Shown here piece by piece: positions 1,139 through 55,874 of a stretch of DNA of 64,000 nucleotides. The position numbers and the translations under genes were made by a program. This DNA is from a virus (Duplodnaviria; Caudoviricetes): the IMG/VR virus record IMGVR_UViG_3300032038_000052, positions 14,613 to 78,612 of that record. One strand, given 5' to 3'. Position 1 is the first letter of the stretch. Each line of letters starts with the position of its first letter. Below the pieces are notes generated by a model. The model worked only from the letters and a program-made list of their open reading frames with translations. It was not told the origin of the DNA and did not search any database.

Positions 1139-1140
1139 TA

Positions 1141-2340: not shown

Positions 2341-2353
2341 GGAGTAAAAGGAT

Positions 2354-10308: not shown

Positions 10309-10340
10309 AATAAATATTAAATAAGAAAGGAGATATTGTT

Positions 10341-10820: not shown

Positions 10821-10851
10821 TTAAAATATTAAAGGAAGGAGGTAATAGAAT

Positions 10852-17590: not shown

Positions 17591-17866
17591 ATGGATAGAG
17601 ACAATATAGTTCATTCCGATGTAACAGGAAAAGACTACTATCCATCTTAGGTTGTTCGATTGGTGAATATTCGATAGATATGTAGTTATATGCGTCTTGG
17701 AAAAATCCCAGTAGATATTTATCCATCTATTGATTTTAAGTCGAACAATCCTGTATTGGTAGTTTTGTTTGATAGGAATGATACAAAAGAGGCATATAAC
17801 CGATGGTGTGAAAGCACAAACTTGTGGGAGGAACTGTAGAATGAAGCCAATGATTTACATGGATAA
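17591..17866 (+). CDS. Hypothetical protein (DUF5659-like); TAG=Gln
   Basis: MDRDNIVHSDVTGKDYYPSQVVRLVNIRQ...VVLFDRNDTKEAYNRWC; 3 TAG; TAA stop. Confidence 0.65.
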
Positions 17867-18977
17867 TGCGGCAACGACAAAACCATTCGCAGATGTTGTG
17901 GAGGCAATGATTCCATATTACAAAGATAGCTTCTATAATCCTTCTGCCAACTATGATATGGCTTATGATGTAAATGATGTATTGCAAGATTGCCGTAAAA
18001 CAATAGCTAATACTATTGGATGTGAAGCAAATGAAATATATTTTACATCTGGTGGAACTGAATCCGACAATTGGGCATTGCGTTATGCACAGCCTGGTCA
18101 ACATATTATAACGTCAAAGATAGAGCATCATGCGGTTCTTAATACTTGTAAATACCTTGAGTCAATTGGGGTAGATGTTAGTTATATAAATGTTGATGAG
18201 CATGGAATGATAATACTAGAGGAGTTGGAAAAAAGTATTAAGACAAATACTTCTCTTATATCTATCATGACTGCCAATAATGAAATTGGTACTATTCAGC
18301 CCATATTGGATATAGCCAAAATCGCTTTTGATTATGGTATTGCATTTCATACTGATGCAGTACAAGCCTATGGACATAAGGAATTGGATGTTAATGAATT
18401 AGGGATTGATATGTTGAGCGCAAGTGCTCATAAATTTAATGGACCAAAAGGTGTTGGATTTTTGTATGTAAATAAGTGTATTAAATTACAACCGTTTATT
18501 TTAGGTGGTATGCAACAAGGCGGCATGAGGGCTGGTACTGAAAATGTTCCTGGTATAGTTGGTATGGCTAAAGCAGCTGATCTGTCGTGCGATTTAGATA
18601 ATATATATCATAGGGCAATTGTTGCTGGTCTTAGGGATTATATGCTAAGTAAAATTAAAGCTGAAATTCCTAATATTATTGTAAATGGAGATTTACATAA
18701 TAGATTACAAAATAATCTGAATATATCATTTATTGGAATTCGTGGCGAACAGTTATTAAGCCAATTAGCAATGAATGGCATCTACGCATCAACTGGTTCT
18801 GCTTGCAATGCATTTTCTCCAGAGCCATCACATGTGTTAAAGGCAATCGGGCTATCTGATGAAGATGCAAGTTCTAGTATTAGGTTCACGTTGTCTAAAG
18901 AAAATACTATAGATGAGATTAATTATACTGTTGATGTATTGAAGAGAAGTGTTGAAGATTTAAGGAGAATTGGATGA
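17841..18977 (+). CDS. iscS: Cysteine desulfurase (IscS/NifS, PLP-dependent); 378 aa
   Basis: IYMDNAATT, FTSGGTESDN, EHHAV, HTDAVQ, SAHKFNGPKGVG (PLP Lys), GTENV, STGSAC (catalytic Cys); GGGAGG RBS; no TAG. Confidence 0.95.
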   Translation: MKPMIYMDNAATTKPFADVVEAMIPYYKDSFYNPSANYDMAYDVNDVLQDCRKTIANTIGCEANEIYFTSGGTESDNWALRYAQPGQHIITSKIEHHAVLNTCKYLESIGVDVSYINVDEHGMIILEELEKSIKTNTSLISIMTANNEIGTIQPILDIAKIAFDYGIAFHTDAVQAYGHKELDVNELGIDMLSASAHKFNGPKGVGFLYVNKCIKLQPFILGGMQQGGMRAGTENVPGIVGMAKAADLSCDLDNIYHRAIVAGLRDYMLSKIKAEIPNIIVNGDLHNRLQNNLNISFIGIRGEQLLSQLAMNGIYASTGSACNAFSPEPSHVLKAIGLSDEDASSSIRFTLSKENTIDEINYTVDVLKRSVEDLRRIG

Positions 18978-19231
18978 AGCATATAGAAAAGGTAAGAAAG
19001 GCTTATGTACTATGTTCAATAGATAATACAGGTAAAACGTGTTATCTAAGAAGCCTACATGAGCCTGGAAAGTGGGAAATTACTACAAATATTGAGGAAG
19101 CAACAAAGTATGCGACTTCTGGTGCGGCTGATTTATCTTATGATTTTTATCAGCATGAATTAGGATCTGATGCGGGGGTGTTTGTTAAAATTCCACTTGA
19201 GATTGAATACAGATTAGTGAAAGAAGAATAA
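18974..19231 (+). CDS. Hypothetical protein
   Basis: 85-aa ORF coupled to iscS by an ATGA overlap. Confidence 0.7.
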   Translation: MKHIEKVRKAYVLCSIDNTGKTCYLRSLHEPGKWEITTNIEEATKYATSGAADLSYDFYQHELGSDAGVFVKIPLEIEYRLVKEE

Positions 19232-19246
19232 TTAAATTGTTATGTA

Positions 19247-19270
19247 GGCCCTCATTTTATGAGGGCTTTT
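19247..19270 (+). terminator. Hairpin/terminator immediately upstream of the tRNA
   Basis: GGCCCTCAT / ATGAGGGCT followed by TTT. Confidence 0.55.
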
Positions 19271-19275
19271 ATTAT

Positions 19276-19346
19276 TGGGGTGTGGTGTAATGGAAGCACA
19301 GGAGGCCCTAACCCTCTTGATCTCAGTTCGACCCTGAGCGCCCCCG
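19276..19346 (+). tRNA. Amber suppressor tRNA (anticodon CUA), probably charged with Gln
   Basis: Cloverleaf: acceptor TGGGGTG/CGCCCCC with discriminator G73; D arm GTGT-AATGGAA-GCAC; anticodon stem GGAGG/CCTCT with loop CC-CTA-AC (CTA at 19308-19310); T arm CTCAG-TTCGACC-CTGAG; no encoded CCA. Confidence 0.92.
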
Positions 19347-19350
19347 TTCT

Positions 19351-19455
19351 ATGCGAGAAAACATAAGGAGTAATTACCCTTGTGCGAGAGTAATCCCTAA
19401 CTCTCATTTCTCGCATTTATTACAATTAGGGGTGGATTACTACAGGGAGGTAATG
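19351..19455 (+). promoter_or_regulatory. Structured leader: outer stem, inner hairpin, anti-SD and internal TACAAT
   Basis: ATGCGAGAAA/TTTCTCGCAT stem; GAGAG/CTCTC hairpin whose loop TAATCCCTAA complements TTAGGG..GATTA downstream; ATTACC(CT) complements the GGGAGGTAAT RBS; TACAAT at 19421-19426. Confidence 0.6.
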
Positions 19456-19457
19456 CT

Positions 19458-20345
19458 GTGGGGAATAGATATATTTTTAAATAGTCTTTTGAAGATTGGT
19501 GTATTACAAATAATAGAGAAGACATTCTACAATTATGGGATTACGACAAAAATGATGTTTTGCCGTCTGAAGTACCATTTGGAACCAAGAAAAAATATTA
19601 TTTTTGTTGTCCAGCTGGTATACATGAGAGCGTATAGAAAAAAATATATGCTGTGACTGAAAAAACAACAAGAAAAATGGTCTGTAAGTATTGTAACGGC
19701 GGGGTTTATTGGAATAACACTAAAGAAGATTTTTCGGGTAGACAAATAGGAGAACTACATGTTATTGGGCTAGATGAAGAGAAAACCAAAAATGGACAAT
19801 ATTATTGGGCGTGCGAGTGTTCTTGTGGGAATATTGTTTCTGTCAGTTCTTCAAAATTAAAAAGTGGAAAGAAGACTACGTGTGGTGGGCAATATAGACA
19901 TAAAGCGCCATAGTGGATAGAGCCAGATGGCGGGTTAGATTCATATAATTCACAATATCTAAGAGAGCTTCGTACTAGTCCGTTGTATTATGAATATAGA
20001 CGAGCAGTTCAAGAAAAGGACAATTGGAGTTGTATTGTTTGTGGTTCACATAAAGATATTGAGGTACATCATATTTATCCGTTTGCAGCGTATCCGCATG
20101 AAAGATTTAATCCTAATACTGGAATATGTATGTGCAAAATACATCATAGTATTAGTAGCCCTATTAGTTTCCACAGTATATATGGAAGATTTGGTAATAC
20201 GCCAGAGTAGCTTGAGCAATATGTAAATTTTATGCGAAAAGAACTAGGTATTTTAGAATATTTTGATGTTTATAAATACATGGATAATTATGAGTCTGAT
20301 AATATAGATATTGATGACTCAATGTTAATAGATTTATATGAATAA
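19458..20345 (+). CDS. HNH homing-type endonuclease with N-terminal zinc-ribbon (DUF4379-like) and CECSCG module; TAG=Gln; 295 aa
   Basis: GTG start after GGGAGG; LWDYDKN..EVPFGTKKKYYFCC; WACECSCGN; CIVCGSHKDIEVHHIYPF..E.FNPNTGICMCKIHH; 4 TAG; TAA stop. Confidence 0.85.
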
Positions 20346-20365
20346 ATCTAAGGAGGTAAAAGGAT

Positions 20366-20590
20366 ATGAAAGATTATTATGTAAATACACGTAAATGTAT
20401 AGACACATACAATAATTATGTGAATGTAGTATTTAAAGACCATGAAGAACTCTCAGATGATAGAGATGAATTTCTTTAGAATTTTTGCTTACATCTTGCT
20501 CATGCATTAATCAAAGACACTGGTTCTGGATAGCTTGCAAGAGATGAACTGGGTAAGATGGCTGATATTATTAATGATGTTGTAAGGTGA
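20366..20590 (+). CDS. Hypothetical protein; TAG=Gln
   Basis: 74 aa; AGGA RBS; 2 TAG; TGA stop. Confidence 0.6.
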
Positions 20591-20596
20591 AACAAG

Positions 20597-21067
20597 ATGA
20601 AAGAAAAACTATTAGCATTGGACACATCAACCAGCTCAACTGGCTGGGCGTATTTTGAAAACGGAAAGTACGTAGTTAGTGATGTTATATCTATAAAGAA
20701 TTAGAAGGATACTGATCTAAGAATGGAACAAATGATTTCTGAAATATATAGATTAATAGAGTGCTACTCTCCTACTGTTGTTGTAACCGAGATGACCGTT
20801 GTGGTTAGAAACCCGGCTGTTCAGCGAATGCTTACAATGATACTTGGAGCAGTATATGGCAACTGCGTAGTCAATGATATAGATTACTACAGCCTTCGCC
20901 CTACAGAGTGGAGAAAACTGATAGATCCAGGTAAAAAGCCTAAAAAGCGAGATGAATTAAAAGAATGGTCAAAGCAAAAAGTGTTTGAGTTATATGGAAT
21001 TGACAATGTAACTGATGATGTTTCTGATGCTATCCTCATAGGACAAGCATATGTGAATATGATATGA
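20597..21067 (+). CDS. ruvC: RuvC-like Holliday junction resolvase; TAG=Gln
   Basis: LLALDTSTSSTGW, VVVTEM, PTEWRK, TDDVSDAILIG; TAG at 20702. Confidence 0.85.
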
Positions 21068-21164: not shown

Positions 21165-21200
21165 AGGGTCTAGGGGTGTCACAGCTCCTAGACCTTTTTT
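21165..21200 (+). terminator. Terminator (loop TGTCACAG)
   Basis: AGGGTCTAGGGG / CTCCTAGACCTT followed by a T-run. Confidence 0.7.
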
Positions 21201-21219
21201 GATAAAAAGGAGATATATT

Positions 21220-21774
21220 ATGGCATCAATTAAATTATCAACATTTATGACTTTATTTAATGCTAAGAAAACCGAAGATGAAAAGGTTGATCTAATACAG
21301 AAATATATTAAAAATGAATATGTACCATATGAAGAAAAGGTGAACACGGCGAATGCTATTGCTGATATTGCATATTGGCAAACAGAGACACAAGCCGATG
21401 GTACAGAGACTAGGTTCCTTCATGTGGATTCTACGGTTAAATATATGTTAACGTGTATGGCGACAATTGATTTATTTACAAATATTGAACGCCAAAAGCA
21501 AAATGGAAAGATGTTAGAAGATTTTAACCTGTTAAATAGTAGTGGTGTCTTTGATTTGGTTATACGAAATATCAATCAAAGAGAATTAAAGGAATTTAAC
21601 ATGATTTTGCAGTTGGTATGTGATGATTTAATAACAAATGAATATGAAAATCATGCTTTCATTAGTAAGCAAGTAAATAGATTTGGAAGACTCATAGGTG
21701 CTTCTGTTGCTCCTGTTTTAGAAAGCTTAGACATGGAGCAAATTGTGAATATGATTAAAGAGAATATCAAATAA
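21220..21774 (+). CDS. Putative tail assembly chaperone
   Basis: 184 aa; AGGAG RBS; lies upstream of the TMP; function inferred from position. Confidence 0.55.
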   Translation: MASIKLSTFMTLFNAKKTEDEKVDLIQKYIKNEYVPYEEKVNTANAIADIAYWQTETQADGTETRFLHVDSTVKYMLTCMATIDLFTNIERQKQNGKMLEDFNLLNSSGVFDLVIRNINQRELKEFNMILQLVCDDLITNEYENHAFISKQVNRFGRLIGASVAPVLESLDMEQIVNMIKENIK

Positions 21775-21780
21775 TAATAT

Positions 21781-21824
21781 GGGGTTAAATTCAAATAAAG
21801 CATTTGAGTTTAACCCCTTTTTTT
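21781..21824 (+). terminator. Rho-independent terminator
   Basis: GGGGTTAAATTCAAAT / ATTTGAGTTTAACCCC followed by a T-run. Confidence 0.8.
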
Positions 21825-21853
21825 ACGTTTTTAGGAAAGGAGTGGTGTACTAT

Positions 21854-22357
21854 ATGCGTACATTAAATAAAATTTATCGGGACTTAAAAAATCGGATACG
21901 TGATACCCTTCCTACGATTGCATATTAGATTGGTGACAAAATGTTTAATAAGTATGTCGATTGTGTATAGGCTTTTTATGATGATATGCCAGAAAGCGAT
22001 GGATATTATAGGACATATAGTACATATTTAGGCTCTAGTATTTCCTATAGTTATGATGAAAAAACTACTGGGTCTTTGCGTAATAACAATGGCGAAGATG
22101 TTGTATTTTCAATTCATGTAAATATGAAGATTGACCCATCGTATTTGGGAAATCCTTATCACGACCCAGTAGATTATGTATTTGAACGTACATGGATATA
22201 TGGTATTCATGGTAATTTAGCAAATCCAGTTATGGAGCCATCTCCATGGGATATTTTTGATGAGTGGTTTGATGGTTTTGCAAATTCCAAAACTGGCGAT
22301 GTAAAGCTAATTACAAATCGTAACATGTTAAAAAAAGTTGGGATAGGATCTCGTTAA
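21854..22357 (+). CDS. Hypothetical virion protein (HK97 gp10-like neck type, tentative); TAG=Gln
   Basis: ATG 21854 is in frame with 21986..22357; FYDDMPESDGYYRT motif. Confidence 0.55.
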
Positions 22358-22375: not shown

Positions 22376-25300
22376 GTGGCGTTTAGAAGTGACTATTAGG
22401 TTGATATTGACCTTAATTTGAGGAGCAAACAGGCATTCGATTAGCTTGAAAAACAATATAACAACATTAAGGCAGAAATAGAGGGGGACCTCATTAAAAC
22501 TAGGATTACTGCTGATACGAAAGACCTTGAAAAGGTGCTAAAAGATATAGCCGATATAAAACCAGATGACTTATCTAATGTATTCTTTAATATTCAAGGG
22601 GGAACACTTTCAAAGTAGTTAAAATAGTTAGAAACATTTGTCGGAAAATCTGGTGAAGAAATTGGATTATAGTTTAGAGAAAGCATACAGGATGGGATGA
22701 AAGGTTCTTTTTTAGACCTCTCCCAAATGGTTCAAAAATATGTTGGAGATGGTAAAAAAGTAACAAAAGGCAATGTGTCAAAGTTATTATAGGGATTAAT
22801 GCAAGATGTATAGTCTCCACTTGATGATACAAATTATTTAAATATAGTAGAAAGAGCAGAAAAACTAGAGCAGCTATATCACACTATGCAAGATTTGCAA
22901 AAAAATAAACTAGATATATATAAAGGATTAGATACAAATAAGTAGCAGATTGGTGATTTTATTTCTTAGCAATATCAATAGATTGGGGAGTTGTTAAGCA
23001 AACAAGTTAATGTTGACGCATTTAGGTCTCAAATATTAGATGTTTTTTCGACTCTGCAAAGTGACTTACAGAAGATGTTTACTGCTATTGCAGAACGAAG
23101 GAAACTCGGATTTGGGAATGGGAGCGGTACTGGCAATGGTGATGGGAATGGATCTGGCAGTGGCGCATATAATAAAGAGACTGAAGAAGAAATAAAAAGG
23201 ATAACAGATGAAATTACTAATCTTACATCTCAAATTGATGAAGCTAAAAATAAGTTAGAGGAATTGAAAAAGGGTACAAAAATATCGGAGGATCTTGATA
23301 GTAAAACAAAAGCTAGTTTAATTTCATCTATTAAAACAGATATCGCTGAAATGGTTTCTGAGCTTGATAAATTTGGAGATAATATTCCATTAGAGAAAGC
23401 TCAAAAGTTTGTGGATTTAATCACTACTTATTATGAGCTTGGCGGTCAAGAATCTAAAATCGCATCGACAGAAAAACTTAAAAATGAAATAGATGAAAAA
23501 TGTAATTACATTTATGAAAAGTTTGATCCGAATGCGGAAGGTGATTTTGAAGGGAAAGTACTATCATCTTATGTTGATTTGAAAGCAATTTAGGAGCAAT
23601 CTGCAGCAATAGAATCATTAACGCAAAAACTTTAGGAATTAGAATAGCAAAAAAAAAGGCTGGTCGAAGGGGTTACTAGTTCTAGTGAGACTGGCGAGGC
23701 TACTGTTACGGCTAAACCAGATGGATCAAAGTTTATTGAAGATTTATAGGAATAGATTAATGGTTAGTCTGTTACAGTAGATACTAAGCCTAGCGAAGAC
23801 TTCTTGGACAAAGTCAAGGATCTCGTCTCCGATGGTATAACAGTTGATGTAACTCCATCTAATAAAAAAGCGGAAAATACTGAATATACAAAACCAAATA
23901 TAGAGATTCCAGATGATATGTCTAAAAAAGTTCGTATTTTTGATGGTGTGAAAGAGCATATATATGATGTACAAAAAGATGCTGATGCACTTTATAAAAA
24001 GCTAGATGAGCTTGCTGGAAAAATGCAATTACCTGTATTCCATTCTGGTAATTTGGAGCAATCGGTATTATCTAGTCCAGATTATATGCCAGCAGATTCT
24101 TTAAGATTTGTTAAAGAACGTGGATTACTTGGATCTCTTGGTACTGGTACATACTGGGCTTCGAATTTACTTGACATTATTGAAGCATTTTAGAATCGTT
24201 CTTAGGACGTATAGAAATTTTTGTATGTTACTGATTTATCTAAGTATAGTCCAGAATTATTAAATCTTAATAGTGATGATGCGATGGATGATTATACATC
24301 CATGTTAACGAAAATTACTGCATTTGTTTTTAATTCTGTACAGGAGACAGAAAAATATACAAAGCTATTACATGGGACGAATAGTTCTGATTAGTTGTTT
24401 GAGGAATACAAAGATTTCTTCTCAAAATTTGGCGTGTCATTTGAAGATTTTTCAAAGTTTATTGACTCAGAGATTAAGCGAGTTTCATCGTTTGCATCAG
24501 TTGAAGATATGGGGAAAAGCACGAGTGTATCTACTGAACTTCAAAAACAATTATTAAAAATTAATGGTGTAGATATTACTCGTGGTAACACTAATGATTC
24601 ATATGCTTTGGGAAATATACTATTTGATATTGACAAGACACATCCATTTGATATTTCATTTGGAGAGAATGTTAATGTCGCAGAATATTTTTATAAAGCT
24701 GTTCTTATGAAAATACTTTCAAACAAGGCGATGAATCCAGAAAATATAATAGAAGAATTGGCAAACAACTATGCAGAAGGTATATAGGGTATCAATACAC
24801 AAGATATTATAAACAACTTGATGGATGTTTAGAATAAAGCGCATCCAATTTCTTTTGATGACATAAACTAGCACTTGTTTGGTCGAACACGAGGGAATAC
24901 TTCCGAGACGCCAGGTGGACAACCTAGCGAAGTATCAGAAATAAAACTGCATGTAGATTAGTAGAGCCTCAATTAGGTTAAGTCGGATATCTAGGCTAGT
25001 TTAGATGAAGCATCATTTAATATAGATATATAGGTAAATAAAGAAGATATTAGGTCTGATGTCCAAAGTGGTTTAGATGAATAGCCTTTTCATATAGTAG
25101 TAGATAGACAAGAAAAATCTGAGTCAAAGACACAAATTCAAGATACATCAACAAACGTTTATAGCGAATAGGTTAAAAAAAGTATCGAAGAAACACAAAG
25201 GTATTTAGAAAGATTAAAAGCAGACGTATCAAGGATGGATCCGGATGGAATTGTATCAAAATACCTTTTTGGAGAGAACGGTGTAAAATCTAGTTAGCAA

Positions 25301-28300
25301 TTAGTTAATGAAATATAGAATGAAGTTAAAGCTATTGAAGACTCGCTATATCAAGACTATTTAAATGGTCGTAAAGATATTAATTATGAAAATGAATTCG
25401 CAGCCCCATTTAATAAACTAAGATTAAGTTAGGATTTTGGGCTAATAAAATATACAGATAAGCTTTTGCCAGATCATATCTAGGATATTTATAATAATTT
25501 GTTTAAGAAAGCACCATCTATAACGTCATCATTAGATGATGACTAGATGTCTTTTTGGGGCGGTCTAATTGATGCACAAGAAAGATTAAATGTTCTGCAA
25601 CAAAACGGCGGGAAAGATTATGAAGCACATCTTGAAAAAATAAAGCAATTATCAGATGAAGTCAAAGTTATAAAAGAGAGAAATGCTTCTTTACAAAAAA
25701 CAGATGTAGATACATCAACATTATCACAGGAAGAAGCAACAAAACGTGCAGAAGGATTTCTTAAAGAAAAAGAAGCTATTGACAAGCTTATTGAGTCTGT
25801 GACTTAGTATCGCTTAGAAAGCAAATAGTTTGCAGATACTGATAGTTATTTCGGAAATTATTTACCAGATATTTCTGACCTTAAAACAATGTCTGAGACG
25901 CTAGAAGATGAAGCAGATTTATTAAAAACGTTAGATATATATCGCAATAGAAAGCAAGCAAAAATTTTTGATAGTGCAGTTGATTACAAGTTTAAAGGAA
26001 AGCATGGAGCACCATAGGAGTTAGAAAATTATTGGGAAGAATTAAGTGATTCTTTTTATCCAAAGTAGGGTTTGGCTTAGTATTCTGGCGAAGAGGCAAT
26101 AGAAAGATTAAATCAAAAAGCAAAAGAACTTGGTGTTACATTTGATGAGACATCTAAAAAATGGGTACAACTTACATCTGCTGGTTCCAATGGGCCTTTA
26201 ACATCGCAAAAAACTTCGACACAAATACCTGCTAATGGAGTATTATTTGGCGATTTATCTGCAAAACTTTCAGAAGAACAGCGTGCAACAGAGCAGTCCG
26301 TTTTGGGAGAAGAAAGTGTTTTTGATAAACTAATTTCAAAGTTAACAACGGATGTTCCAAATGCTGTTGATACAAAAACACAGGCATTCAGATCTGAATA
26401 GGTAGAAGTTGATGACCTTATAGATTTAGAAATAAATAAAATCAAAGAGTTAGCAGAGACTTTGCAGACCGCTTTTGCGACCTCTGGCAATGTATAGGAT
26501 TTTGGTGCTTTAAGAGATTTAATTCAAGCGATCAATGATTTCTCTAGTGGTGAAAACATATCTACTAATCTTGAAACGCTTTCCGCTGCTGTTTAGGGTT
26601 TAGTAGATGCGTTAAAAGGTGCATCAGATATTTCTAATGCTTCTACTCAATTATCTGATTTAATGAAGTCGATGAAAGTTTCAAAGGCGAATGTTGATAA
26701 CATGATTGACTTGGCTACTGCTATTGAGATGCTAGTTGAACAGTTTAGGAATCTAGGAAAATCTGCGGCAATGCCTAATATTTTGTAGCCAATTAATGAC
26801 ATCATAAAAAATGCGGAAGCATTAAAAGATTTATCTAAAGTACTCTCTGTTTCTGCAAAAGAAAGAAGAACTGCATCTGTTCAAGCTAGTATTAATCCAG
26901 ATGTGAATGAGAAGAAAGCGAACGATGCTGCGGAAAAGCAGTTGGACAATTTGATGCAATACTATGCTTTACAAGATGAAAAGAATCAAAGAAAAGTCAG
27001 TGGTAAAAATGAGCGTGCATCTCTTACTGCAATTGCAAAAGAAGAAAAGCTTTTGAGGGAAATTAATGAATATGAAGCTGAAATTGCAAAGAAAAAACAA
27101 AATGGTATTTCATTAACAGAAAAAGAAGTCGCAGCGTTAGAAAAACGTAAAGAACTAGAAAAAATAGTAGCCGATAGACGTGAAGAATATGAAAAAGCAC
27201 AGGCGGATGCGGCGGAAAAGAGTTTAAAAAATCGAACTGACAAAATAAGAAATTCATATGATGATATATAGAAAGAGCTTGATAACAACTTATCAATAAA
27301 CTAGGAATTCTTTACACCAGAGTTAGATCAAAAGGTCGCTGAAATAAAGCGGAAATTTTAGGAGTTACGTGATATATAGCTAGTAGACCAAGAAGATATA
27401 AATAAAGCAGAAAAACTGAGAACCGAAATTAATAAGGCAATTGCTGAATTAAAGAATGACCCAAACTATAAGACTGCGAATACAAATACTAGAACTGCCT
27501 TATAGGCGAAAGCTGGGAAATGGTTGGAGAAGAATACTGCTGCTCCAGAATCACTTAGGAATTAGGTAGGTGAGTTATATAGTACACTTTCTAGCGATGT
27601 CCCAGTTTCTATGTTAAAAGAAATCTCAGCCGAATTAAACAGAATTGATGCGGAAGCTGCGAAGGCCGGCAAAACAGGTAGAAGTTTTGTTGATATGCTT
27701 GGCGTTAGTTTTAAGAACCTTGGCAGATATCTTTTAAGTTTTGCAAGCTTCTATAGAGTAATTGGTATTTTCAGACAGGCTGTTGGGATAGTAAAAGAAC
27801 TTGATACTGCCCTCATGGAGGTAAGAAAAGTTAGCAGTGAATCATTGTCGTCATTAAAAGAATGGCAGCAATTAACGTTTAGCCAAGCGAATGACATTGG
27901 TGGTACTGCTCAACAAATCTAGGAATCCACTGCTGCATGGTTAAGACTTGGTAAATCATTTGAGGAAGCATCAGAAGCCGCACAGGCATCTGTTAAGTTA
28001 CTGAACGTTTCCGAGTTTACAAATATTGATGATGCTACTACTTCTCTTGTATCTATGCGACAGGCATTTAAAGATTTATCGTATGAAGATTTTATTGATA
28101 AATTAAATGGTGTTGGTGATAATTTCAGTTCGAGTACTGATCAGCTTGCGTATGGTATGAGGAACGTATCTTCTGTTCTTAAGGTTGCTGGCAATGATAT
28201 TGACCAATCTCTTGCTTTGCTAACTGCTGCAAATGATATTACTCAGGACATGAGCAAGGCTAGTATGGGTGTGCGTACAGTAGCACTTCGTATCGCCGGA

Positions 28301-31300
28301 ACCGAAGATGCGAAAGCTGAACTTGAAGAACTCGGAGAAGATACTTCTGACTTTATTGTACAAACGCAATCTAAAGTAGATGCGAAAGTAAGAAAATATA
28401 CTGCTACCGCTGATAATCCAAATGGTATAAGCGTATTGGATGACAATGGCCGTCTAAGAAGTACTTATGATATCTTATTGGATATTTCAAAGGTTTACGA
28501 TTAGATTGTCGAAAAAGATAATCAGTTCGGTACAAACACTAGTAATGCATTACTTGAATTACTTGCTGGTAAGACAAGAAGTAATATTCTTGCTTCTATA
28601 TTATAGAATCCAACTGTACTTGAAGAAGCTTATACACAATCATAGAATTCAAAGGGCATTGGTCAAAAAGAGCTTGATATCTATCTTGATTCTATTCAAG
28701 CTAAGATGACCAAGTTACAAAATGCTTTACAAAAACTTGCGTCTGTTACTATTAACAGTGATTGGCTTAAAGTGTTTGTAGACCTCGGCGCTGGCGCAGT
28801 TAAGATATTCTCTACATTAACGGAGAAGCTTGGAAGTTTCAGTACAGTTATAGCTCCTATAATAAGCATGTTCCTTCAGCGCAAAGGTTTTGGAATGCTA
28901 GGGTCTAAGAACGGAGCTGGAATTATCTCTATGCTGTTGGGCAATGTAAGTGATTCTGCCATCAAAAAGGAACTTAGCCCATTATAGAAATAGATGCAAA
29001 ATGTCTTTTCTGGCATGAAATTTAACGATGATGATAATTTCTTTACAACAATGGCTAAACGTGGATTGACTCCAGAGACCATGAAGACATCTGAGTTATT
29101 TGGACCAATGCTTAAGGATATGGATGGTGCTGAAGCCGCTTCTCTTAGTATGGGAACTGCTGTTGCGACATTGAACGAACGGCTTGGTATGACTGGGGAG
29201 GTTGCAGTTTAGACTGGTGGCACGCTATCTAGTCTTGCGGGTGGTTTAGCTACTGTAGGAAAATCGTTTTTGTCTGTAGGATTAACAACCATAGCTATCA
29301 CAGTGGCTACAAAAGTTATAGAAGGGCTTGTAAAAGCCGTTTACAACTGGGTTACTGCTGACGAGCGTGCTATTGAAGCTGGGAAAAAAGCTCGTGAAGA
29401 AGCAGAACAATTAGCGAAGTCATATGCAGACACAGAAAAAAAGACCAATGAGCTTGGGAAAAGATATAATGAATTAAGGCAAGGAGTTTTTTATGATGAG
29501 CGAAAGGGATATTCAAACAAATCTCTTTCTGAAGATGAATTTGAGGAATTCTTAAAAGTTAATGAAGATATAGTGGCATTATATCCTAGACTTAAAGAAG
29601 GTACTGACGCTCAAGGTAATGCTTATGTAAATCTTGGGGATAATGCTACACAGGCCACAGAAAAATTAAAGGAATATCTTAGGATTTAGGAACAAATATC
29701 CAATGAAGGTATAGGTAAGACATTTGATGACCAATTGGCTGGAGCTGTTGCAAAAGAAGCAGAATTACGTGGTATAATACAAAATGCTAACTTAGATAGC
29801 ACTACGTTAGATATATTAGATAATGGAATTGATGATTATATATAGCGTATAGATGATAATTATAACTATTATACCCTCAAATTAGAAGAACTTGGAACGG
29901 TAAATCAAAATACAGTTGATTCAATACAACAAGTACTGAATGAAAATGATTCTCTGTTATAGTTTGATACTTCCGCAGAAGGTTTTAAGTAGATAGTTAC
30001 ATTTACTTTCGAAATGGATGAAGATTCAGAAGCTAAAATAAGAGAGCAATTGTCATAGGCTATAAATGGTGGGGCTGATTATTCTACTACTGATACTGTT
30101 GCAGGACTTAGAGAGTAGGTAGAAAGTTATGAAGAAGAAATTGTAGATGCTTATGATTCTACTAGACCAGCTCTTTTGGCTAAGATAAAAGAGACTAAGA
30201 CATATAAAGATTTGCCATAGGAACTGCAAGAAGGTATTAGTAATATATATGATAATATAGATATATATCAATCATATAAGAATTATGAGAACTACAAAAA
30301 ACAGCATTCTGAATATTCAAAAGACTTCTATGCGTATATTAAAGAATAGTATCTATATGCAATAAATAAGGCGATTAACCAATCTGATGATTCTATGCAA
30401 CGAAAAGAAAAGGCGGACTTGGTCGGAAAATTATTCTCTTTTGACGCATCAGATCTAAACTCAGCGCAAGCTATTAATCAAATAGACACTATTCTCTCTT
30501 CTATATTCGGCGAAAATACAGAAGTAAAGTAGTCTATTAAAGTTGCACTTGGTATAGACTTTGTAGATCCAGAAACTGGAGAGGTAATAAGTGATAAATA
30601 TAAAAAGCAGAACCAGGAATTATATGATATCCTCAAAGATTATGGTTTATCTAGAGGGGATGTCGGTAAAGGGCTTACAATTGGTGAAAAGGATACAATA
30701 CAATCTGCTATATCATCTGGTGAATTTAATTTCATTGGTAGTGGGCTTGATAAGTTAAAGGAATGGCTTAAAAAAGAATATTAGCCATCACTTGATGGTA
30801 GCTTGTCAGATATATTCAACGATGCGTCATACAAGGAGAACACGGAAGAAATTTCTTCCAATATCTCTACTATCTCCTCTTCTCTTGAAACACTTAGGAA
30901 TAATGGTAAACTCACAGCAGAAGAGATGATGAAACTTCAAGAGTCGTTCCCAGATATGACTGAGTTTTCTGAAGAAGCCTTATCTTCAAGAGGTGTTGAG
31001 CTGCTTTCAAAATGGATTGAAGAGCTTAGAAAAGATTATGATACGTTTTCAGATGAAGGTAAAGAACAAGTAGATACATATATCAATAATCTTATGACTT
31101 CTTTCAGTGATGCCATTGCGACTGAAGAAGATGCGGTAAAAGTCCTTTATGATTCATTTATTAATCCTACCGACACAGAACGGGAAGAACAATTACATAT
31201 GAACCGTGCCGAGTCTGTTATTAAGGGATTAAAAGAAAAATATGGTGATGAGCTTGACTGGAATATTGTATGGCAATTAGCTGTTAATGATTAGCTGTCT

Positions 31301-34300
31301 GGAGAAATGGAAGACATCTATGCTCAATATGATGAACGTGTTCTTAACTGGGACATTAATGTTAATATTCCTAAAGAGGTTGAACAGTTAGAAAGGAACA
31401 TCGCAGGACGAAATGCTAGAATATCAGCTATTGAAGCCGAAAAAGGTTATTACGATGCTACTGGAGAATACTTGCCGGACATAAGTGAAAATTGGTTTGA
31501 TGAGATGCTCCGTTTAAGTGGGCAAAATGTTGCAGATAAAACAGTTGAGTATACAAATGCGCAAAAAACATATGCAGCCTATACAAATGGATTGTTTGGA
31601 AAAATGCTTAGTAATGCTTCTCCAGAGTTATCTTCTGGAGCGTATAAGGCTATGGCAGAAGCAAGAGCTGCTATGGTTTAGGCAATGACGGAGTAGACGG
31701 ATATTCAAAAATAGTATTATGAATTCTAGGCGAATATGTATACCAAAGAAATTGAAGAAGCACAAACAAATGCAGCAAAAGTATAGGCTAGAATTGATTA
31801 GGCGAAATTTGAAGGTGTAATGCCAGCCGAAACCGATTATGCCGAATTACGTGATGCATACAAGACGTAGGCAGAAATGCAAGAAGGATTGGCAAATTTC
31901 TGGGATACAGTTGCTAATAGTGGTAAAGTAAATTCAGTTATGCGTGCAATTGCAAATCAGAATGCAGCAACTGCTCGTGCAAATGCAATTAGTGCTAATG
32001 AATCTGCCAATGAGGCTGACCGTGGTTATTTAACTGATGAACTTCTAGAGAAACAGAATACTTATAATGATCTTCAAACTGAAGCATCTCAAATTGAGCA
32101 ACAGATTACTGATGATGAAACCAAACATCGTAAGATATCCAACAAGCGTTATGATGAGTTAATTAAGAATGGCGACAAACAAATCGCTAATCTTGAAGAC
32201 TAGCGCAAGACGTTAGTTGACCTTCGTAGCAAGACGATTCAAGGCACAGAAAAATGGCGTGAATATTAGTCGCAAATTGATGATGTTGACTCTTCTATCT
32301 CATCCATGGAGAACAGCCAGGTTGGTTGGTTTGAGTCAATGACTACTGCCGTCTCGTCCAATGCATAGACTCTCGCTTCTGCTCTTGATTCAGCTTTCTC
32401 AGAGATTAATTCTGAAACTGGATTAACTCGTGACACGATGAATACGCTTGTCGAGCAGTTCAGCGACCTTGAGAATTATGATGTATCTAAGATTTTCTAC
32501 TCTACTGCTGATGGTATGAAATTTAATACCGATGCAACTAGAGAATTGATAGATGCTGAGTATGATTTATAGGTTAATAATCTTCGTGATGCTATTGCTG
32601 AAGAAACTTCAATAATCGAGGCAAACAAGGATTCAAAGGACGCTAACTCATATGCTACTATTCAGAATGCATAGGCTAATATAAATGCTTATAATGCAGA
32701 ACTTGCATCACTCTAGGCATTATATGATCAATAGCAAGAATCTCTTTCTAGATACTCTGCTTGGGAGACTGCAAAGTCTACTGCCAATGCTGGTGATAAA
32801 TACACAAATCTCCAAGGTAGTTGGAAAGATATCAAAGAGATGTTCCAAAACGGTTTGACAGGCACTGATGATTTCAAATCTTTCGTTGCGTATTTTGACG
32901 AATGGGGAATGGGAACTGTCGATGCCTACAAACGCAATAAAGATATGATTGCTCGTTATCTTACTGAAGATGGCAAGGGCATGAAGAATTTTTATGATGA
33001 CCTTGTATCCAAAGGTTTTGGAACAAGAACTGGTAATATCTATTCAATTGGAATTGAGGATACCGAAGCTGCCGCTCATGCAATGGGAATGTCAGAAGAA
33101 GCATTGAAGATGTTCCTTGACCGTGGCGAGGATTATGGTTTCAGAAATACATGGGTTGAAACAGTTCTTGACGGAGAATTAAAATTATAGGATACTACTG
33201 AACAATTAATCGAAGAACAAGAACGTCTGCAGCATATGAGAGCAAACGGTGCTACAGAAGACGAAATTAAGAATCAAGAAACGCTAGTTAGCCAGCTCAA
33301 AGATAATATGAAAAATTATATTGAGAATACGGCTGATGTAGCTGGAGAAGATAATACAAAAACATATGCAAAAACAATTGAACAGCTTAAAGCTATAAAT
33401 GAACTTCGTGGCGAGACATTTGGCGCAAAAGTCAAAATGACTGATAGAGAATTGTCTGCGTACAATCAGCAACTTGATAATGCTATGCAACAGACTCTTG
33501 GGGGCTATACTTCAGATCAGCTGCAAGAGTTTAAGATTCAATATGAAGCTGAACTAGATGATGACTCAAAGAGAATTATTGACTAGATGACCGAATTAGC
33601 CAAGCAGCGTGAGATTATACAGAAGTACACAGCAGAAGTTGAGATAAAGGATGAATCTGGACAGCCTATTACTCCAGAAGAATTCTTATCTTTAACAGAA
33701 GAACAGTAGAAAGAGACTCTAGAAGCAACATATGGTGTTACTATAGATGAGACGAATTTTGATTTGTGGAAAGAACATTTCCAATCTCAGACGTTAACTG
33801 CGAAAGTTCAAACTGTAGTAGACTCTGGTACTACATCGTATAAAGACCTTCTTAATATGGATGCCGAAGAGTTGACTCAGACTATTGGATTTAACGTTGA
33901 TGAAAGTAATATTGATGAAGTTAAAGCAAAAATTGAAGAAATGTCTGCTGTTAAGGTATCTCTTGATGAGACATCTCTTACTTCTTTGACTAGTGCATTG
34001 AGCGAAGCTTTTGTCTTGGCTATTAACACTATTTAGGCTGGAGAATAGGTTGATGAGTTTGTTGAAGAAACAGATGATAAGACTGGTACTGTACAAGTAG
34101 ATGCGGATACGAAAGAAGGAGAGAATGCTGTAACTAGATTTGTCAATAGCATTATGGCAAAACATCCAGCGATGCGTGTGCTTGCAGATCCTACTGTGCT
34201 AATTGATAGTATTCAAGAAGTACTTAACAATCGTGAATTCAATGTCAATGTTAAAGCAAACGTGAATGCTCCAGCTGCTGTTGTTAAACCAGGTGTAGCT

Positions 34301-37300
34301 AAGAAAGTTGGCAATGTCGCTGTTAACGGCAGAAACAATGGTCACGCTTATGCTAATGGTAAGCCAGGAGATCTTGTTGGTGAGCTTGGGCGAGAAATGG
34401 TCGTCGATCCGCATACTGGCAGATATTACACGGTTGGCGACAATGGACCTGAGTTTACAAACATCCCAGATGATGCAATTGTATTTAACGCCGACTAGAC
34501 AGATGACTTATTAAAACATGGTCACACTTCTACTCGTGGTCGTGCTCTTGTAACAGGTAACGCTTTTGATAGTACAGATTCTACCAATGAATTTGTCTAT
34601 AATGATCCAAAGAATACATTTGGAAATGGTGCAAAAGCAACTAAAGATAATACTAAAGCTACGAAAGATAACACCAAAGCGTCCAAAGAACAAAAGACTG
34701 CTCTTGATAAGTTCAATGATTGGCTCGGTAAATGGGTTGACTGGATTGATAATCGTATTGATTCTCTAACAAAACGTATTGAACGATTTGAAAAGAAAGC
34801 AGATGAATTAATCGGTTATTCCAAAAAGAACTAGACAATCCAAAATGCGATGAATACTCTTTCTACTATTCCGTAGTATCAAAATGCGCAGTTGAAAACC
34901 AAGAAAGTTAAAGGCACCAATGGTGTTGTAACAGAAATTGCAACTGGAACAAGTGGTGTTAAGAAGGGAACTCTTCTTGGCGATACCATGCGTGGTGCTG
35001 TTAGATATCAGCAACAGGCCGACAAAGTGATGAAGAAGGCCGTTAAGAGCGGGCTTCTTTCTCAAAAGAAAGCTAACGAAATCGCTAAACTCATCTAGAC
35101 TGGTGAGATTGATATTCGTAAGTACAATGAGAAAGTTCGTGCGGTAATTTAGGCATACGAGGACTGGTTTGGCAAGTCACAAGATTTGATTGATTCTACT
35201 TATGAACTCAAGCAACAGTTCAAAGATCTCGAACAAACGAAGCTTGATAATATTACTGAGAGATTTGAAACATTAGTAGGATTATTTGAAGCGGCAAATA
35301 CTTTATCTGAAGCGGCTGTAGATTATTATTCTGAGCGAGGTCGTGCTGTTAACACTGTAGATAAAACAGAGATGGGCTTCCAGCTTGAACGGCAAGGTCG
35401 TATAACTCAAGAGCTAGAAAACGAGAGAACTGCATATGAAACTGAGATGAAGCAAGCCAAGGCTATTTTTGGCGAAAGCTCCAATGAATATCGTTAGGCA
35501 CGAACATAGTTCTATCAAATACAAGAAGAGTTAAAGAAATCTTAGACATCAGAGCTTAGTTTAAGACACACAATTGAAGAACTCACATTTACTGTACGTG
35601 GATTTGTGATTGACAGGATTCAATCTTTTGTAAGCAAACTTGGCAACATTGCTTCTTTGGCTGAAAAGCGTGGCACAAATAAAGCATTGGGTTATGAAGT
35701 AACCGAAGATGTATTTAATGAATAGATAGGGTATAATAACGATTTGATCCTTAAATATGCTGAAGATTTACAAGCTCGTAAAGACGAAATCGCTCGTCGT
35801 ACTATTGAAGAAGGACTTGAAATCAATTCTGATGCATATTAGGAGCTTTATAACAAGATTGTTGCGGATGAAGATGCAATGTATAAGCTTTATTCTGCAA
35901 ATGAAGATCTCAAGATGTCTATTCGTAATCTTAGATGGAAACCGTTCAAGGAATTTTAGGAAACTCTTGATAAGATTGAAAGCGACTTTAATCACATCTA
36001 GAGCTTTATTCGTGAAGGTGAATTGCTTGATGATGACGGACAGTTTACTGCTCGTGGATTTGCTCAGATAGCTCTTGTTGGCGAGAATATGGATGTCGCA
36101 GAAAAGAAGATCGCAAACGCTCGTGCTGCTATTGAGAAGCTGAACGATGAACTTGAAGTTGGCACAATTAATGAAGAGACTTTCGGCGAAGAGTTCGAGG
36201 CTCAGATGAAGATTATCCAAGATTCTGCTTCTAGTGCGTATGACAGCATGCAGAAGCTTGCTGATTTGTACATCAAGCAGATTACCGAGGAGAATTCGAT
36301 TCTTCAGGATTTGATTAAGAAGAGACAAGACGCATTAAATAAAAAGAAAGCGTACTATGATTATGACAAACAGATTCGTTAGAAAAATAAAGATGTAAAT
36401 GCACTTAGGGCTTAGATAAATGCCTTGACTGGAGTATCGACCGATGCGGCCAAGGCCCGTCGTGCACAACTCCAGGCACAGCTTAAAGAATCTGAACAGG
36501 ATTTAGAAGATACTCGTTATGAACACCAGATTGAAATGCAACAGCAAGGCTATGAGCAACTCTCCGAGGATATGCAGAAAGCCTTGGATGATGCAGTCAA
36601 GCTGATTAACGGCGATCAACAAGCCCTGAAAGATACTGCCGCAACGATGCTCTCTCAGCTTGAAACAAATTATATTGACGAGAAAGCTGTTATAAGCGGC
36701 ATTGTAGCGGGGACTGGTACTAAAATTCATACTGCAACCGAGGACATGATTGACCAGACCTTGACTGCGCAATCCGTATTGTCAGATGACGCACAGGGGA
36801 TTGCAAGTGCTGTTTCTGCAATTGCTAAAATTCTTGGACAGAATCCTCAAAAGATGGCGGAATCTTTGGGCGGTATTCTTACTCAGCTCGGCAGTACTGG
36901 AACGCTTTATCAGGCGATTGCTAAGTTTGCTGATGAGAATGGCATTAAGATTAATGAACTTGGATTGGATGGAGTAATATCCGCTATTGCTGCCCCGTAT
37001 GATGGACAGGGCCAAGCCGCTAAATTATTCGCGGAAATCAATTCTGCGATTACTGGAGATAATACAAGAAATTCTGTATTCTCACAGACGGCAGCTATCA
37101 AATCTGTTATTGATACCATTGCCGAGAAACTCGGTTTAGACAAAGAGGCCGCTTACAACGAGGCTCAGGAAATTGCTAAACAACTTGGAGGAGACGCAAC
37201 AATCTCCGATGTTGTAGACCAGTTCCTTGACAACCGCGGCATTGAAGTCGATTCTGAGTTGCAGGATTTCATTGATAACATAACAAATCCATTTGACGAC

Positions 37301-38455
37301 GTGTCAGCGAATGATTTGTTTGAAGGTTATAATGACTTGATATCTTAGTATAACAATTAGCTTCAACTCCTTGATGACCTCGGTGTTAAGGATAATCCAG
37401 ATGGAAGTTCTCCCGCCACGATGGAGCCAGCCGAAGCTATTGATATGCAACCTGTTGTTGAGGCTATTGAAAAAATAGACCCAGTTGTTAATATTACTAC
37501 CAATTCCGATGGCGAAGATATCAGCGATGTACTTGAACAGATTGAAGACGATTATTTGAAGTTGGATTCAGATAAAGGTACAACTGGCGGGACAACAAAA
37601 GATGATAATGTAGCGGGTCCTGAAAATATTGACAAGGCGCAAAAAGAAAAAGAAGCAATGGAACGCGCCGAGGAAATGGACAAATTAGCAAAACAAATCG
37701 TAACCGCTTAGAATAGTTTAACCAAATTAGAGAAGAATCTTGATTATTATGCCACTCAATATTATAACTATAACAGTAAGATAGCCGACAAAAAAAAAAG
37801 GCTGGCAGAGGCCAAGGCAAATAAAGAAGGCAGCGCAAAGTACGCTAAAATTAAAGAAAAAATTAAATCACTAAAAAAGAAAAGAGATGAAGCAGCAGAA
37901 AACAAAAAGGCTTTTGAATACCAAATCAAGAATGCAAAAGATGATTTGCAAGTACTTGAGGATAGGCTTGCTTTGATGCACCTTGAGGATGAATTTGATT
38001 CTTACGCTTCTGGCACAAAACGTGTCGGAAAAGATATGAATGCGTGGACGAATGAGGATTGGGAGAATCTCGGAGCCGAGATGATTGTTCGTAAATCAGA
38101 CGGTGCTATTCTCACACCTCTGAAAGCGAATGATTCTGTAATTCCAGCAAACCTTGCAGATAATCTGTTTAAGTGGGGAGCAATCAGTCCAGACAAATTC
38201 CTGTCGAATCCATTCTTGGGCAAGATGGGTGATATGCCGAGCAATGCGAACGTTACTAACTAGGTTGATCAGAAGGTTGAGATGCATTTCGACTCGTTGT
38301 TCACAATTCAAGGCGATGTTAATGCTGATGTTATGGATAGACTTGAAGAGTTTGGTAAGGCTCTTACGAGTGACCGTAACTTCTAGTAGAATGTTGTCAA
38401 ATTTGTAACCAAAGATTTTGTGCGTGAATCCAAGAAACAAGGTGGATTCCGTTAA
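22376..38455 (+). CDS. Giant tape measure protein; TAG=Gln; ~5,359 aa
   Basis: More than 20 ORF-track fragments share one frame; the gaps I translated contain TAG but no TAA/TGA. TP901-type TMP core at ~27780-28700 (VKELDTALMEVRKVS...IDKLNGVGDNFSSSTDQL); GELGREMVV and C-terminal YASGTKRV motifs; TAA stop. Confidence 0.9.
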
Positions 38456-38460: not shown

Positions 38461-38496
38461 AAGGGTGGGTGTCACAGCCCACTCTTCTATTTTTTG
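38461..38496 (+). terminator. Terminator (loop TGTCACAG)
   Basis: AAGGGTGGG / CCCACTCTT followed by CTATTTTTT. Confidence 0.7.
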
Positions 38497-38520
38497 TGGA
38501 AAGGAGGTACGACAAGAAAA

Positions 38521-39717
38521 ATGTATGGTAAATATTTTACTTATGACAATGAGGCTTCCACCGATTACAACCTTATGATTGGTGGATTTCAGCGAGATGA
38601 TGTTCCACTCGCAATGAACAGAGAGCTATTAAAAGGAACGCTGAACCGCTACCGTAACCGTGTCAATCACATGGGCACTTAGTGGAGCGATGTGTTGGAA
38701 TTTACTATCTCGTTTATGAAAGATCCGTGCAACAAGAGTTACCAATCGGATATGATATTTACAGAAGATGAGGTCGATGCTATTAACACCTGGCTGACTT
38801 CGCCGGACTATCCCATCCTGTTCCACATGTATGATTATGACTTTGAAAAAGATGGTTCGGACAATATGGTGTTGATTGATAACACAAAGACAACTGTTAA
38901 TGTCGAGATTTAGGCTAATGATTATAGCTATGTAATATATAGAATTTCAGATGGCGAATTGGTATCCACTAACATTACGATAGTCGGGAACAAGACTCCG
39001 CCAGAACCTGAATCTATTGTTTAGTATGATAATTACTTATCAATAGCTTTCGATGAAGACTATATCCGTTCAATTACAAAGATATACGTTGGCGGTGTGG
39101 AATACGAAGAAAGTGATACAAGAAGTTGGCTGTCCACGTACGCCGCTGGGGACACCTGTGAAAACTAGTATGTCAAGGTGATAAATAAATCTCTCATTCT
39201 TAACAAGAAGTATAACTATTTTGGGTTGTTTTCGAATGTTGAGGCTGAGACATATCACGGCGACATCATTGGGCTAACAGCTACGTTTACTACTGACTCG
39301 CCGTTCGCATGGACGGATACAATCACAAAAACTTTTGAAGTGTCTGATGGTGATACGATTACTTTCGACGTGTAGACTTCTGAGAAGTACCGTGAAATAT
39401 ACCCGGTAATAAAGATAAAGCCTGTTTACACTGGCGGGGCAGGACGGTCTGACATTATATTGCATAATAATCGTGACGGGTACGAAATCCAGATGGAATT
39501 ACAACAGGCGATTAACGTTGCTACTACCACACTAGATTGTGAACACTCGAAGATTTATAGTGCGTCCGGCAGCCTGTCATTCGAAGATCTCGGTATTACT
39601 GATACGGATTACATTTATTGGCCTAGACTTTATAACGGCACAAACTCATTTACTGTCAGTGGAGATTGTGTATTGACATTTGAGTACCGTGAGCCGAGGA
39701 AGGTTGGTGCTTATTAA
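38521..39717 (+). CDS. Distal tail protein (Dit) with internal insertion; TAG=Gln; 398 aa
   Basis: Follows the TMP; MYGKYFTYDNEASTDYNLMI..., INTWLTSPDYP, TFTTDSPFAW, WPRLYNGTNSFTVSGDC motifs. Confidence 0.8.
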
Positions 39718-46741: not shown

Positions 46742-46808
46742 TGTTTCCTACATTTTACATGCAAAGGAGGCATTAATATGATTAAAATAATGAAAGGAGG
46801 TGGCGCTG

Positions 46809-55800: not shown

Positions 55801-55874
55801 GAACAGACATAAGTGGCTCGTGCAGCCTAGTTATGGACAGAACCCTCAATTGCCTAAACTTTGTATTTAATTAA
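46809..55874 (+). CDS. Giant tail fibre / receptor-binding protein; TAG=Gln; ~3,021 aa
   Basis: AGGAGGTG RBS; eight track fragments share a frame and I read the gaps as open except for TAG; collagen-like, coiled-coil, CBM-like and GNAATAT-type modules; ends CLNFVFN-TAA. Confidence 0.85.

Follow-up and report, generated by a model that had tools for sequence, protein, structure and literature searches.

A 5,359-codon TP901-type tape measure gene in an uncultured phage that appears to read TAG as glutamine

Introduction

The Thermus phages P23-45 and P74-26 have tape measure proteins (TMPs) of 5,002 amino acids (aa; gp96 in P23-45) and tails described as 'nearly 1 um' long (PMC10770324, PMC10034513). 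In P23-45, the N-terminal ~1,200 of the 5,002 residues are a virion RNA polymerase, which is found in the virion within the full-length TMP (PMC10770324). Here we describe a gene of 5,359 codons in a 64,000-nucleotide stretch of DNA (hereafter the window) that spans positions 14,613 to 78,612 of the IMG/VR virus record IMGVR_UViG_3300032038_000052 (Duplodnaviria; Caudoviricetes). Our best explanation, to which we give a probability of roughly 0.6, is that it is a genuine TMP gene of the TP901 type, encoding a protein of 599 kDa, from an uncultured, large-genome, Firmicutes-type phage with a non-contractile tail, that TAG stands for glutamine in it, and that most of the chain serves as a ruler.

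The experimental proof that the N-terminal length of a TMP sets the length of the tail comes from TP901-1, where N-terminal deletion or duplication shifted tail length by ~30%, in proportion to the residues removed or added; both the N- and C-terminal ends of that TMP are essential, and its first hydrophobic region is required for infectivity (PMC5099701). In phage TM4, deletion of an embedded 114-residue hydrolase motif cut tails by ~20 nm (PMC1796659). Two cultured siphoviruses of the same supergroup as the phage described here serve as calibrators: PMBT24, with a TMP of 1,508 aa and a tail of 238 nm (0.158 nm/aa; PMC11035940), and Tsamsa, with a TMP of 3,123 aa and a tail of 440 nm (0.141 nm/aa; PMC3903500). 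Among uncultured phages, the phAss-1 group of the human gut is TAG-recoded, with TAG read as glutamine, and has TMPs of 3,149-3,209 aa (PMC10607447). So far as we could find, no TP901-type TMP above ~3,200 aa has been described for gut or rumen phages.

One open frame with TAG read as glutamine

The original prediction, made from the letters of the sequence alone, held that a single 16,080-nucleotide frame occupies window positions 22376-38455 under genetic code 15, and named an overlooked in-frame TAA or TGA as the finding that would split it. Full translation of the plus strand with table 15 gave 5,359 codons followed by a terminal TAA. TAG occurs 107 times in frame, TGA never and TAA nowhere before the end, so the frame stands as first drawn. 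Because the other two frames contain 201 and 636 TAA/TGA stops across the same 16-kb span, this openness lies far beyond chance. The start codon is a GTG at 22376 with a good Shine-Dalgarno sequence, AAAGGCGGTGA, just 5' of it, and the nearest in-frame stop on its 5' side, at 22355, is the terminal TAA of the gene before it. The choice of start is supported by the N-terminal module of the protein (N1 in Table 1), whose alignment with four other giant TMPs begins at residues 2-7 of the latter. The product is acidic (pI 4.66), with 1.5% proline, a single cysteine and 29 histidines. We are highly confident that this span is one real, single TMP gene.

Two independent supports underlie the reading of TAG as glutamine, namely the presence nearby of a predicted tRNA with the anticodon CUA and the occurrence of glutamine opposite TAG in standard-code homologues. 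When the protein was aligned with 17 giant IMG/VR homologues without in-frame TAG (standard code), glutamine stood opposite the TAG codons 26.1% of the time, compared with 25.7% for the CAA/CAG codons. We take it on this evidence that the phage reads TAG as glutamine by means of its own tRNA(CUA). TAG codons are found in every module of the TMP, at their highest density in the first 1,750 residues, and with 107 of them in one essential protein decoding must be very efficient: the computed yield of full-length product is 34% at a read-through of 99% per codon and 0.4% at 95%. Fragments truncated at TAG would be without the C-terminal end and are probably inert and probably not built into tails. 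The gene is a stringent natural reporter of stop-codon reassignment, in that useful yields need a per-codon read-through of ~99% or better.

The first three open reading frames (ORFs) of the window (243-2893, an exonuclease among them) are free of TAG and most of the structural genes bear it, a distribution that fits a standard-code early region beside recoded late genes. In the 192-aa ORF just 5' of the TMP gene (21779-22357) both glutamine codons are TAG; the adjoining 191-aa ORF is without TAG.

Family membership and relatives

The protein is identified by its sequence as a TP901-type TMP. Its core exceeds the curated cut-offs of both family models, matching TIGR01760 at aa ~1793-2123 (75.4 bits, cut-off 28.8) and PF10145 at aa 1837-2044 (73.2 bits, cut-off 33.2), and the TMP profile phrog_4211 (E = 1.7e-51) covers ~1,500 further residues. 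This core is the only recognised domain in the protein; other features of TP901-type TMPs are present as Dit-like and Tal-like genes directly downstream and as hydrophobic segments after the core (windows at aa 2131-2176 and 2276-2315, peak Kyte-Doolittle value 1.65). About 1,750-1,800 residues precede the core, in agreement with the ~1,800 first estimated.

In a collection of 5.8 billion proteins, in which those of at least 2,947 aa with the core were counted, 74 such giants were found; 19 of them match or exceed the 5,359-aa protein in length, and the longest has 7,587 aa. A representative library holds 10,338 clusters with the core at E <= 1e-3, and an alignment-based scan of IMG/VR gave 166 stretches that encode it. 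No close relative was found by megablast against cultured phages, and none was confirmed by a single-protein scan of IMG/VR. The relative P0002 is collinear with the protein described here and 87% identical over 3,791 aa, and P0004 (5,398 aa) has the same C-terminus. Relatives without in-frame TAG have complete ORFs of 4,620-5,681 aa, and in one of these standard-code relatives (L058) the layout is that of a small ORF, the TMP, a Dit-sized ORF and a large Tal. Since complete standard-code ORFs reach 5,681 aa, the giant size is not a by-product of recoding.

A still longer closed TMP frame of 8,310 codons, checked at the DNA level, belongs to the closest of the long relatives and lies at 63815-88747 of the IMG/VR contig 3300037400_002261 (L082-L084). 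It has a strong Shine-Dalgarno sequence with ATG, 164 in-frame TAG codons and a TAA at both boundaries, and the other two frames of the gene contain 338 and 1,150 stops. Its core is 63-72% identical, and the gene takes up ~23% of the 107-kb contig, which is rated 54% complete. Judged against cultured phages the gene in the window is thus exceptionally long, as had been claimed; within its own clade it is not, given the 19 of 74 homologues that equal or exceed it and the relative of 8,310 codons. Nor was the long pre-core region borne out as a peculiarity of this gene, for among the 74 giant homologues its length runs from ~600 to ~4,090 aa, and ~1,750 is ordinary.

These relatives suggest, tentatively, an undescribed clade of uncultured phages with TMPs of ~3,000 to at least 8,310 aa, comprising TAG-recoded and standard-code members, probably with Firmicutes hosts. 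By the ruler rule their tails would measure from 0.7 to ~1.2-1.3 um, and tail length would be tuned by insertion and swapping of whole pre-core modules, some of which (N3, for example) would be folded passengers that enter the host. Taken as a whole, we hold this proposal to be possible rather than probable.

A mosaic of modules

The anatomy of the protein was mapped from its coverage by the 74 giant relatives (Table 1). The core is shared with ~70 of them, aa 2200-3700 and 4000-4800 with 22-40 and the last 160 residues with ~21; aa 1-1300 are shared with only one to six, and aa 3700-4000 and 4800-5200 are variable. Several relatives conserve N1 at their very N-terminus, which suggests that it works as an N-terminal cap. 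It is followed by a flexible linker with GNGSGTGNGDGNGSGSG at aa 247-263, a natural sequence; the PDB sequences that it matches are all synthetic GS linkers from engineered fusions.

Of the 74 relatives, P0032 alone has a counterpart of module N3, which lies inside that protein (1826-2169) and is 29% identical; the blocks conserved between the two are FHS, GxGTY and LGN..D.DK.HP..I.FG.NV. The module is missing from P0002, which is otherwise 87% identical. N3 is rich in aromatic residues, its strand propensity exceeds its helix propensity, and histidines cluster in and around it (eight of the protein's 29 lie in aa 528-906). From these properties of the sequence, N3 probably folds and travels as a passenger of ~350-390 residues. 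Towards the other end of the protein, aa 4801-5200 are 94% identical to P0010, a TMP of 6,363 aa, whereas the two cores are only 57% identical; this stretch was therefore exchanged recently between diverged TMPs.

Internal duplication was rejected as the origin of the length, as self-BLASTP with overlapping chunks of the protein gave no internal repeats at E <= 1e-3. With N3 and aa 4801-5200 swapped among relatives and no internal repeats, the TMP is seen to be built by accretion and exchange of modules. A possible further GELGxE motif close to the C-terminus, of the kind that a fusion of two TMPs might leave, was considered and set aside; it reaches only E = 0.065 in a pairwise comparison, is not consistent in relatives and is a lead only. 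The GELGxE...P..IVFNA..T motif itself is the only clearly non-helical conserved island. Just past it lies the sole tandem repeat found, KATKDNT KATKDNT (window 34634-34675, aa ~4087-4100), which is kept in P0004 as KDNTKATKDNTK.

Ruler, cargo or both

The original prediction offered a choice between a long tail and a large N-terminal cargo region that is ejected. This is a false choice, since the P23-45 TMP does both, being a ruler and the carrier of an N-terminal enzyme; ruler and cargo are not alternatives. In the protein described here most of the N-terminal region looks like ruler. An AlphaFold2 (AF2) model of aa 881-2080, built with a 21-row alignment, is 76% helix with only four strand residues (mean predicted local distance difference test score, pLDDT, 54.7; predicted template modelling score 0.28). 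Within it, aa 881-1750 are 78% helix, with helices of up to 76 residues and no strands, at a pLDDT of 54.7 (low to moderate), a predicted pattern as expected of an extended rod. A crude propensity scan favoured helix in 95 of 108 windows.

Searches for an enzyme were negative. Outside the core, Pfam (E <= 1), NCBIfam and PHROGs, run on ten overlapping segments of 600 aa, gave nothing beyond coiled-coil noise. When all PDB chains were searched by phmmer with aa 1-479, 451-1000 and 881-1750, the sole matches were GS linkers, and neither 8H2M nor 8H2N appeared at E <= 1. The motifs DxDxD, [DN]xD[GA]D and HExxH are absent from the entire protein. Enzyme cargo was rejected on these grounds. Of the cargo region as first proposed, only aa ~490-880 look like folded cargo and the remainder is mostly ruler-like, so that the chain reads, from its sequence and the predicted helicity, as mostly ruler with N3 as the sole credible passenger module.

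The strongest competing explanation is that all or much of the ~1,300-1,750 pre-core residues are ejected passengers and that only the ~3,600 residues of core and post-core measure, for a tail of ~0.5-0.57 um. It draws on the P23-45 precedent and on the uneven conservation of the protein, in which the N-terminal 1,300 residues are common to so few of the 74 relatives compared with the post-core; moreover, the GS-type linker sets N1 apart from the rest, and N3 is swappable, with a globular-type composition and conserved polar blocks. Yet aa 1-1750 contain no enzyme family, catalytic motif or match to a PDB sequence, and half of that length (aa 881-1750) is predicted as long helices without strands. 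N1 is conserved where a functional ruler end would be expected, and in TP901-1 tail length tracks N-terminal changes, just as an embedded enzymatic motif counts toward length in TM4. We consider this explanation unlikely.

Less probable still is that the product is cut just past the core, or acts as two parts, with one part, or both end to end, setting the length. Among the 141 closest cluster representatives, 97 end no more than 60 aa past the core, so the pre-core-plus-core and the post-core parts can be separate genes and may not both measure length, although some of the short representatives may be contig-end truncations. The relative L020 (9044-20986) is split at the same boundary: its first ORF (9044-11413) ends just past the core and its second piece (1,982 aa) matches phrog_4211 at positions 956-2591. 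A like split has been reported in phage CB457P1 in the PMBT24 paper (PMC11035940), and the Tsamsa TMP has been seen as bands of 280 and 100 kDa (PMC3903500); by analogy, the fused protein may be processed at the post-core boundary. Against this, the frame in the window is continuous across the boundary, at least 74 homologues are fused, and neither a protease gene nor a cleavage motif came to light. The insert that separates the two pieces of L020 is ~3.6 kb long and has four ORFs, two of them on the opposite strand, mostly without assigned function; L042 and many representatives are also split. By occurring commonly in both fused and split form, and by sharing near-identical modules across diverged relatives, these TMPs provide a natural experiment that can show which of their parts measure.

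That some in-frame TAG codons terminate, or that the contig is chimeric, and the 16-kb frame is an artefact of table 15, is close to refuted already: the frame does fragment under table 11, the database contains the window's own 200-aa code-11 piece and the 107 TAG codons would cost two thirds of the product even at 99% read-through, but the stop counts, the tRNA(CUA), the glutamines opposite TAG, the presence of TAG in every module and the full-length collinear homology to independent assemblies, standard-code ORFs of 4,600-5,681 aa included, all speak for one gene, and truncated fragments would probably stay out of tails.

Tail type, length and a proposed mechanism

A search for the sheath family PF04984 gave no match in the 78.6-kb record (~46% complete), and no structural ORF matches a sheath PHROG, several ORFs being without assigned function. 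The nearest cultured relatives of the portal are the Lactococcus 949 group, Brevibacillus phage Sundance, and Bacillus and Mammaliicoccus phages, which are large-genome siphoviruses of Firmicutes; the 949 group, Sundance and the Bacillus phages are long-tailed. These observations point to a non-contractile tail, which is not proven, because the model of the candidate tube protein is unusable (pLDDT 39) and half of the genome is missing.

At 0.141-0.158 nm/aa, 5,359 residues predict a tail of 756-847 nm, in line with the value near 0.8 um that had been expected from the usual length rule; with N3 folded and excluded the prediction becomes ~700-790 nm. By the analogy with the calibrators, a tail of at least 0.65 um seems somewhat likelier than a shorter one. 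For the 8,310-residue relative, the same rule predicts 1.17-1.31 um. If the rule holds, these phages would have the longest virus tails known, exceeding those of the current record holder, P74-26.

The mechanism proposed here follows that of lambda, TP901-1 and TM4. Chaperones would keep a few TMP copies extended, the Dit/Tal tip would anchor them by their conserved C-terminal end, and tube subunits would polymerise around them until N1, the conserved cap at the N-terminus, is reached. Almost all of the helical chain would then act as ruler, giving a tail of ~0.7-0.85 um. During infection the TMP would be expelled, with the hydrophobic segments that follow the core helping to form a passage through the membrane. 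The TMP owes its length to the accretion and exchange of modules rather than to internal repeats, with the pre-core half as the fast-evolving part.

Several points weigh against the reading of the gene as a long ruler in a non-contractile tail. No virion has been seen. The tube protein is a candidate only, and its AF2 model, made with no alignment, is all-beta and unreliable at a pLDDT of 39. Neither a G/GT-type frameshift signal nor a slippery heptamer was found in the two ORFs in the chaperone position, whose open frames overlap by only ~20 nucleotides. The helical model of the TMP is likewise of low confidence (pLDDT 54.7) and covers 1,200 of the 5,359 residues. As ~1,200 N-terminal residues of the P23-45 TMP are a folded enzyme, the number of residues per nanometre need not be uniform. 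Finally, there are the many representatives that end just past the core.

Genome context

The record is a single contig of 78,612 bp without terminal repeats, estimated by CheckV as 46% complete, which makes a full genome of some two times that size probable and puts the share of the TMP gene below the apparent 20%. The morphogenesis module in the window runs in the order large terminase and portal, capsid-region genes, candidate tube gene, inserted block, two small ORFs, TMP, Dit-like protein, Tal-like protein and further tail proteins (Table 1). The two small ORFs have no family match in PHROGs, and Pfam was not run on the 192-aa one.

The inserted block (17697-21067) separates the candidate tube gene from the two ORFs in the chaperone position and carries a class-V aminotransferase, the suppressor tRNA, an HNH endonuclease and a RuvC resolvase; a metabolic enzyme within a tail module is unusual. 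The 426-aa ORF at 17697-18977 was considered as a tube or sheath protein and rejected, being the class-V aminotransferase (PF00266, E = 8e-78). A second giant ORF, of 3,024 aa (window 46800-55874) and with almost no family match, lies past the tail-tip genes; its TAG density is low, at 10 TAG codons (0.33 per 100 codons, whereas the TMP gene has 2.0), and it is probably a fibre or adhesin.

Table 1. Features of the window discussed in the text (window coordinates; residue numbers refer to the TMP)
Feature	Position	Strand	Basis
Candidate tail tube protein, 266 aa	16000-16800	+	phrog_2729 virion structural protein; weak PF06199 match
Suppressor tRNA, anticodon CUA, for the 107 TAG codons	19275-19347	+	tRNA prediction
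Two small ORFs, 191 and 192 aa, in tail-assembly-chaperone position	21199-22357	+	position upstream of TMP
Tape measure protein gene	22376-38455	+	5,359 codons and TAA; 107 TAG read as Gln
Module N1, aa 1-245, conserved N-terminal domain, putative cap	22376-23110	+	aligns from residues 2-7 of P0006, P0022, P0030, P0016
Gly/Ser/Asn flexible linker, aa 246-264	23111-23167	+	composition
Module N2, aa 265-489	23168-23842	+	common to 5 relatives
Module N3, aa 490-880, sole candidate folded, swappable module	23843-25015	+	alignment, composition
Module N4 and pre-core, aa 881-1749, predicted helical rod	25016-27622	+	AF2
TP901-type TMP core, aa 1750-2200	27623-28975	+	TIGR01760, PF10145
Hydrophobic, Gly-rich post-core segments	28976-29365	+	aa 2131-2176 and 2276-2315 overlap part
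Post-core region A, aa 2331-3700	29366-33475	+	conserved in 22-35 of 74 relatives; phrog_4211
Variable region 1, aa 3701-3999	33476-34372	+	coverage by relatives
GELGxE...P..IVFNA..T motif (aa ~4000-4060) and post-core region B (to aa 4800)	34373-36775	+	conservation
Variable region 2, aa 4801-5200	36776-37975	+	recently exchanged module
Conserved C-terminal end, aa 5201-5359	37976-38452	+	common to ~21 relatives, including exact C-terminus of P0004
Dit-like distal tail protein	38494-39717	+	DUF6558 N- and C-terminal domains; directly downstream of TMP
Tal-like large minor tail protein, 1,506 aa	39717-44237	+	phrog_6211

Comparison with known systems

The TMP of TP901-1 has ~937 aa, a core near its N-terminus and 11-residue repeats; the TMP described here is ~5.7 times longer, with ~1,750 residues ahead of the core and no internal repeats. 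The two nevertheless have the same core above the family cut-offs, hydrophobic segments behind it and conserved N- and C-terminal ends, TP901-1 being the type member of TIGR01760 and PF10145 (PMC5099701).

Among cultured phages, Tsamsa, the Lactococcus 949/phiL47 group and Brevibacillus phage Sundance are large-genome (120-170 kb) siphoviruses of Firmicutes with unusually long tails, those of the 949/phiL47 group measuring 470-480 nm (PMC3888941). The TMP cores of Sundance, PBC2 and SPbeta match the 5,359-aa protein at 22-27% identity. The Tsamsa/949/Sundance group differs in that its TMPs have at most ~3,100 aa, that it uses the standard code and that the identity is only ~25%. The cultured Enterocloster phage PMBT24, a gut siphovirus of Clostridia that has been imaged by electron microscopy and has a non-contractile tail (PMC11035940), has a TMP core that matches with 24% identity over 28% of a 1,500-aa query, and a RuvC gene stands upstream of the TMP gene in both phages. 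Its TMP is 3.5 times shorter and in standard code. Homology of its tail genes was considered and rejected, as none was detected outside the TMP and the gene sizes alone look alike. The phAss-1 phages share the reading of TAG as glutamine and a long TMP gene that fragments under the standard code; their TMPs are ~40% shorter.

The only characterised precedent of comparable size is that of P23-45 and P74-26, which are alike in having a TMP of ~5,000 residues, a non-contractile tail (inferred for the phage described here) and a long stretch of chain before the parts that act at the membrane and as ruler. The protein described here shows no detectable sequence similarity to these TMPs, PDB entries 8H2M and 8H2N included, and it has neither the DxDxD polymerase signature nor a metallopeptidase motif. 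Its pre-core is predicted to be mostly helical and not a folded enzyme of ~1,200 residues, the host type differs, and the gene is TAG-recoded. This gene demonstrates that the ~5,000-residue TMP of the Thermus phages is not an oddity of thermophiles, and that TP901-type rulers of 5,000-8,300 residues are common in uncultured phages allied to the large siphoviruses of Firmicutes.

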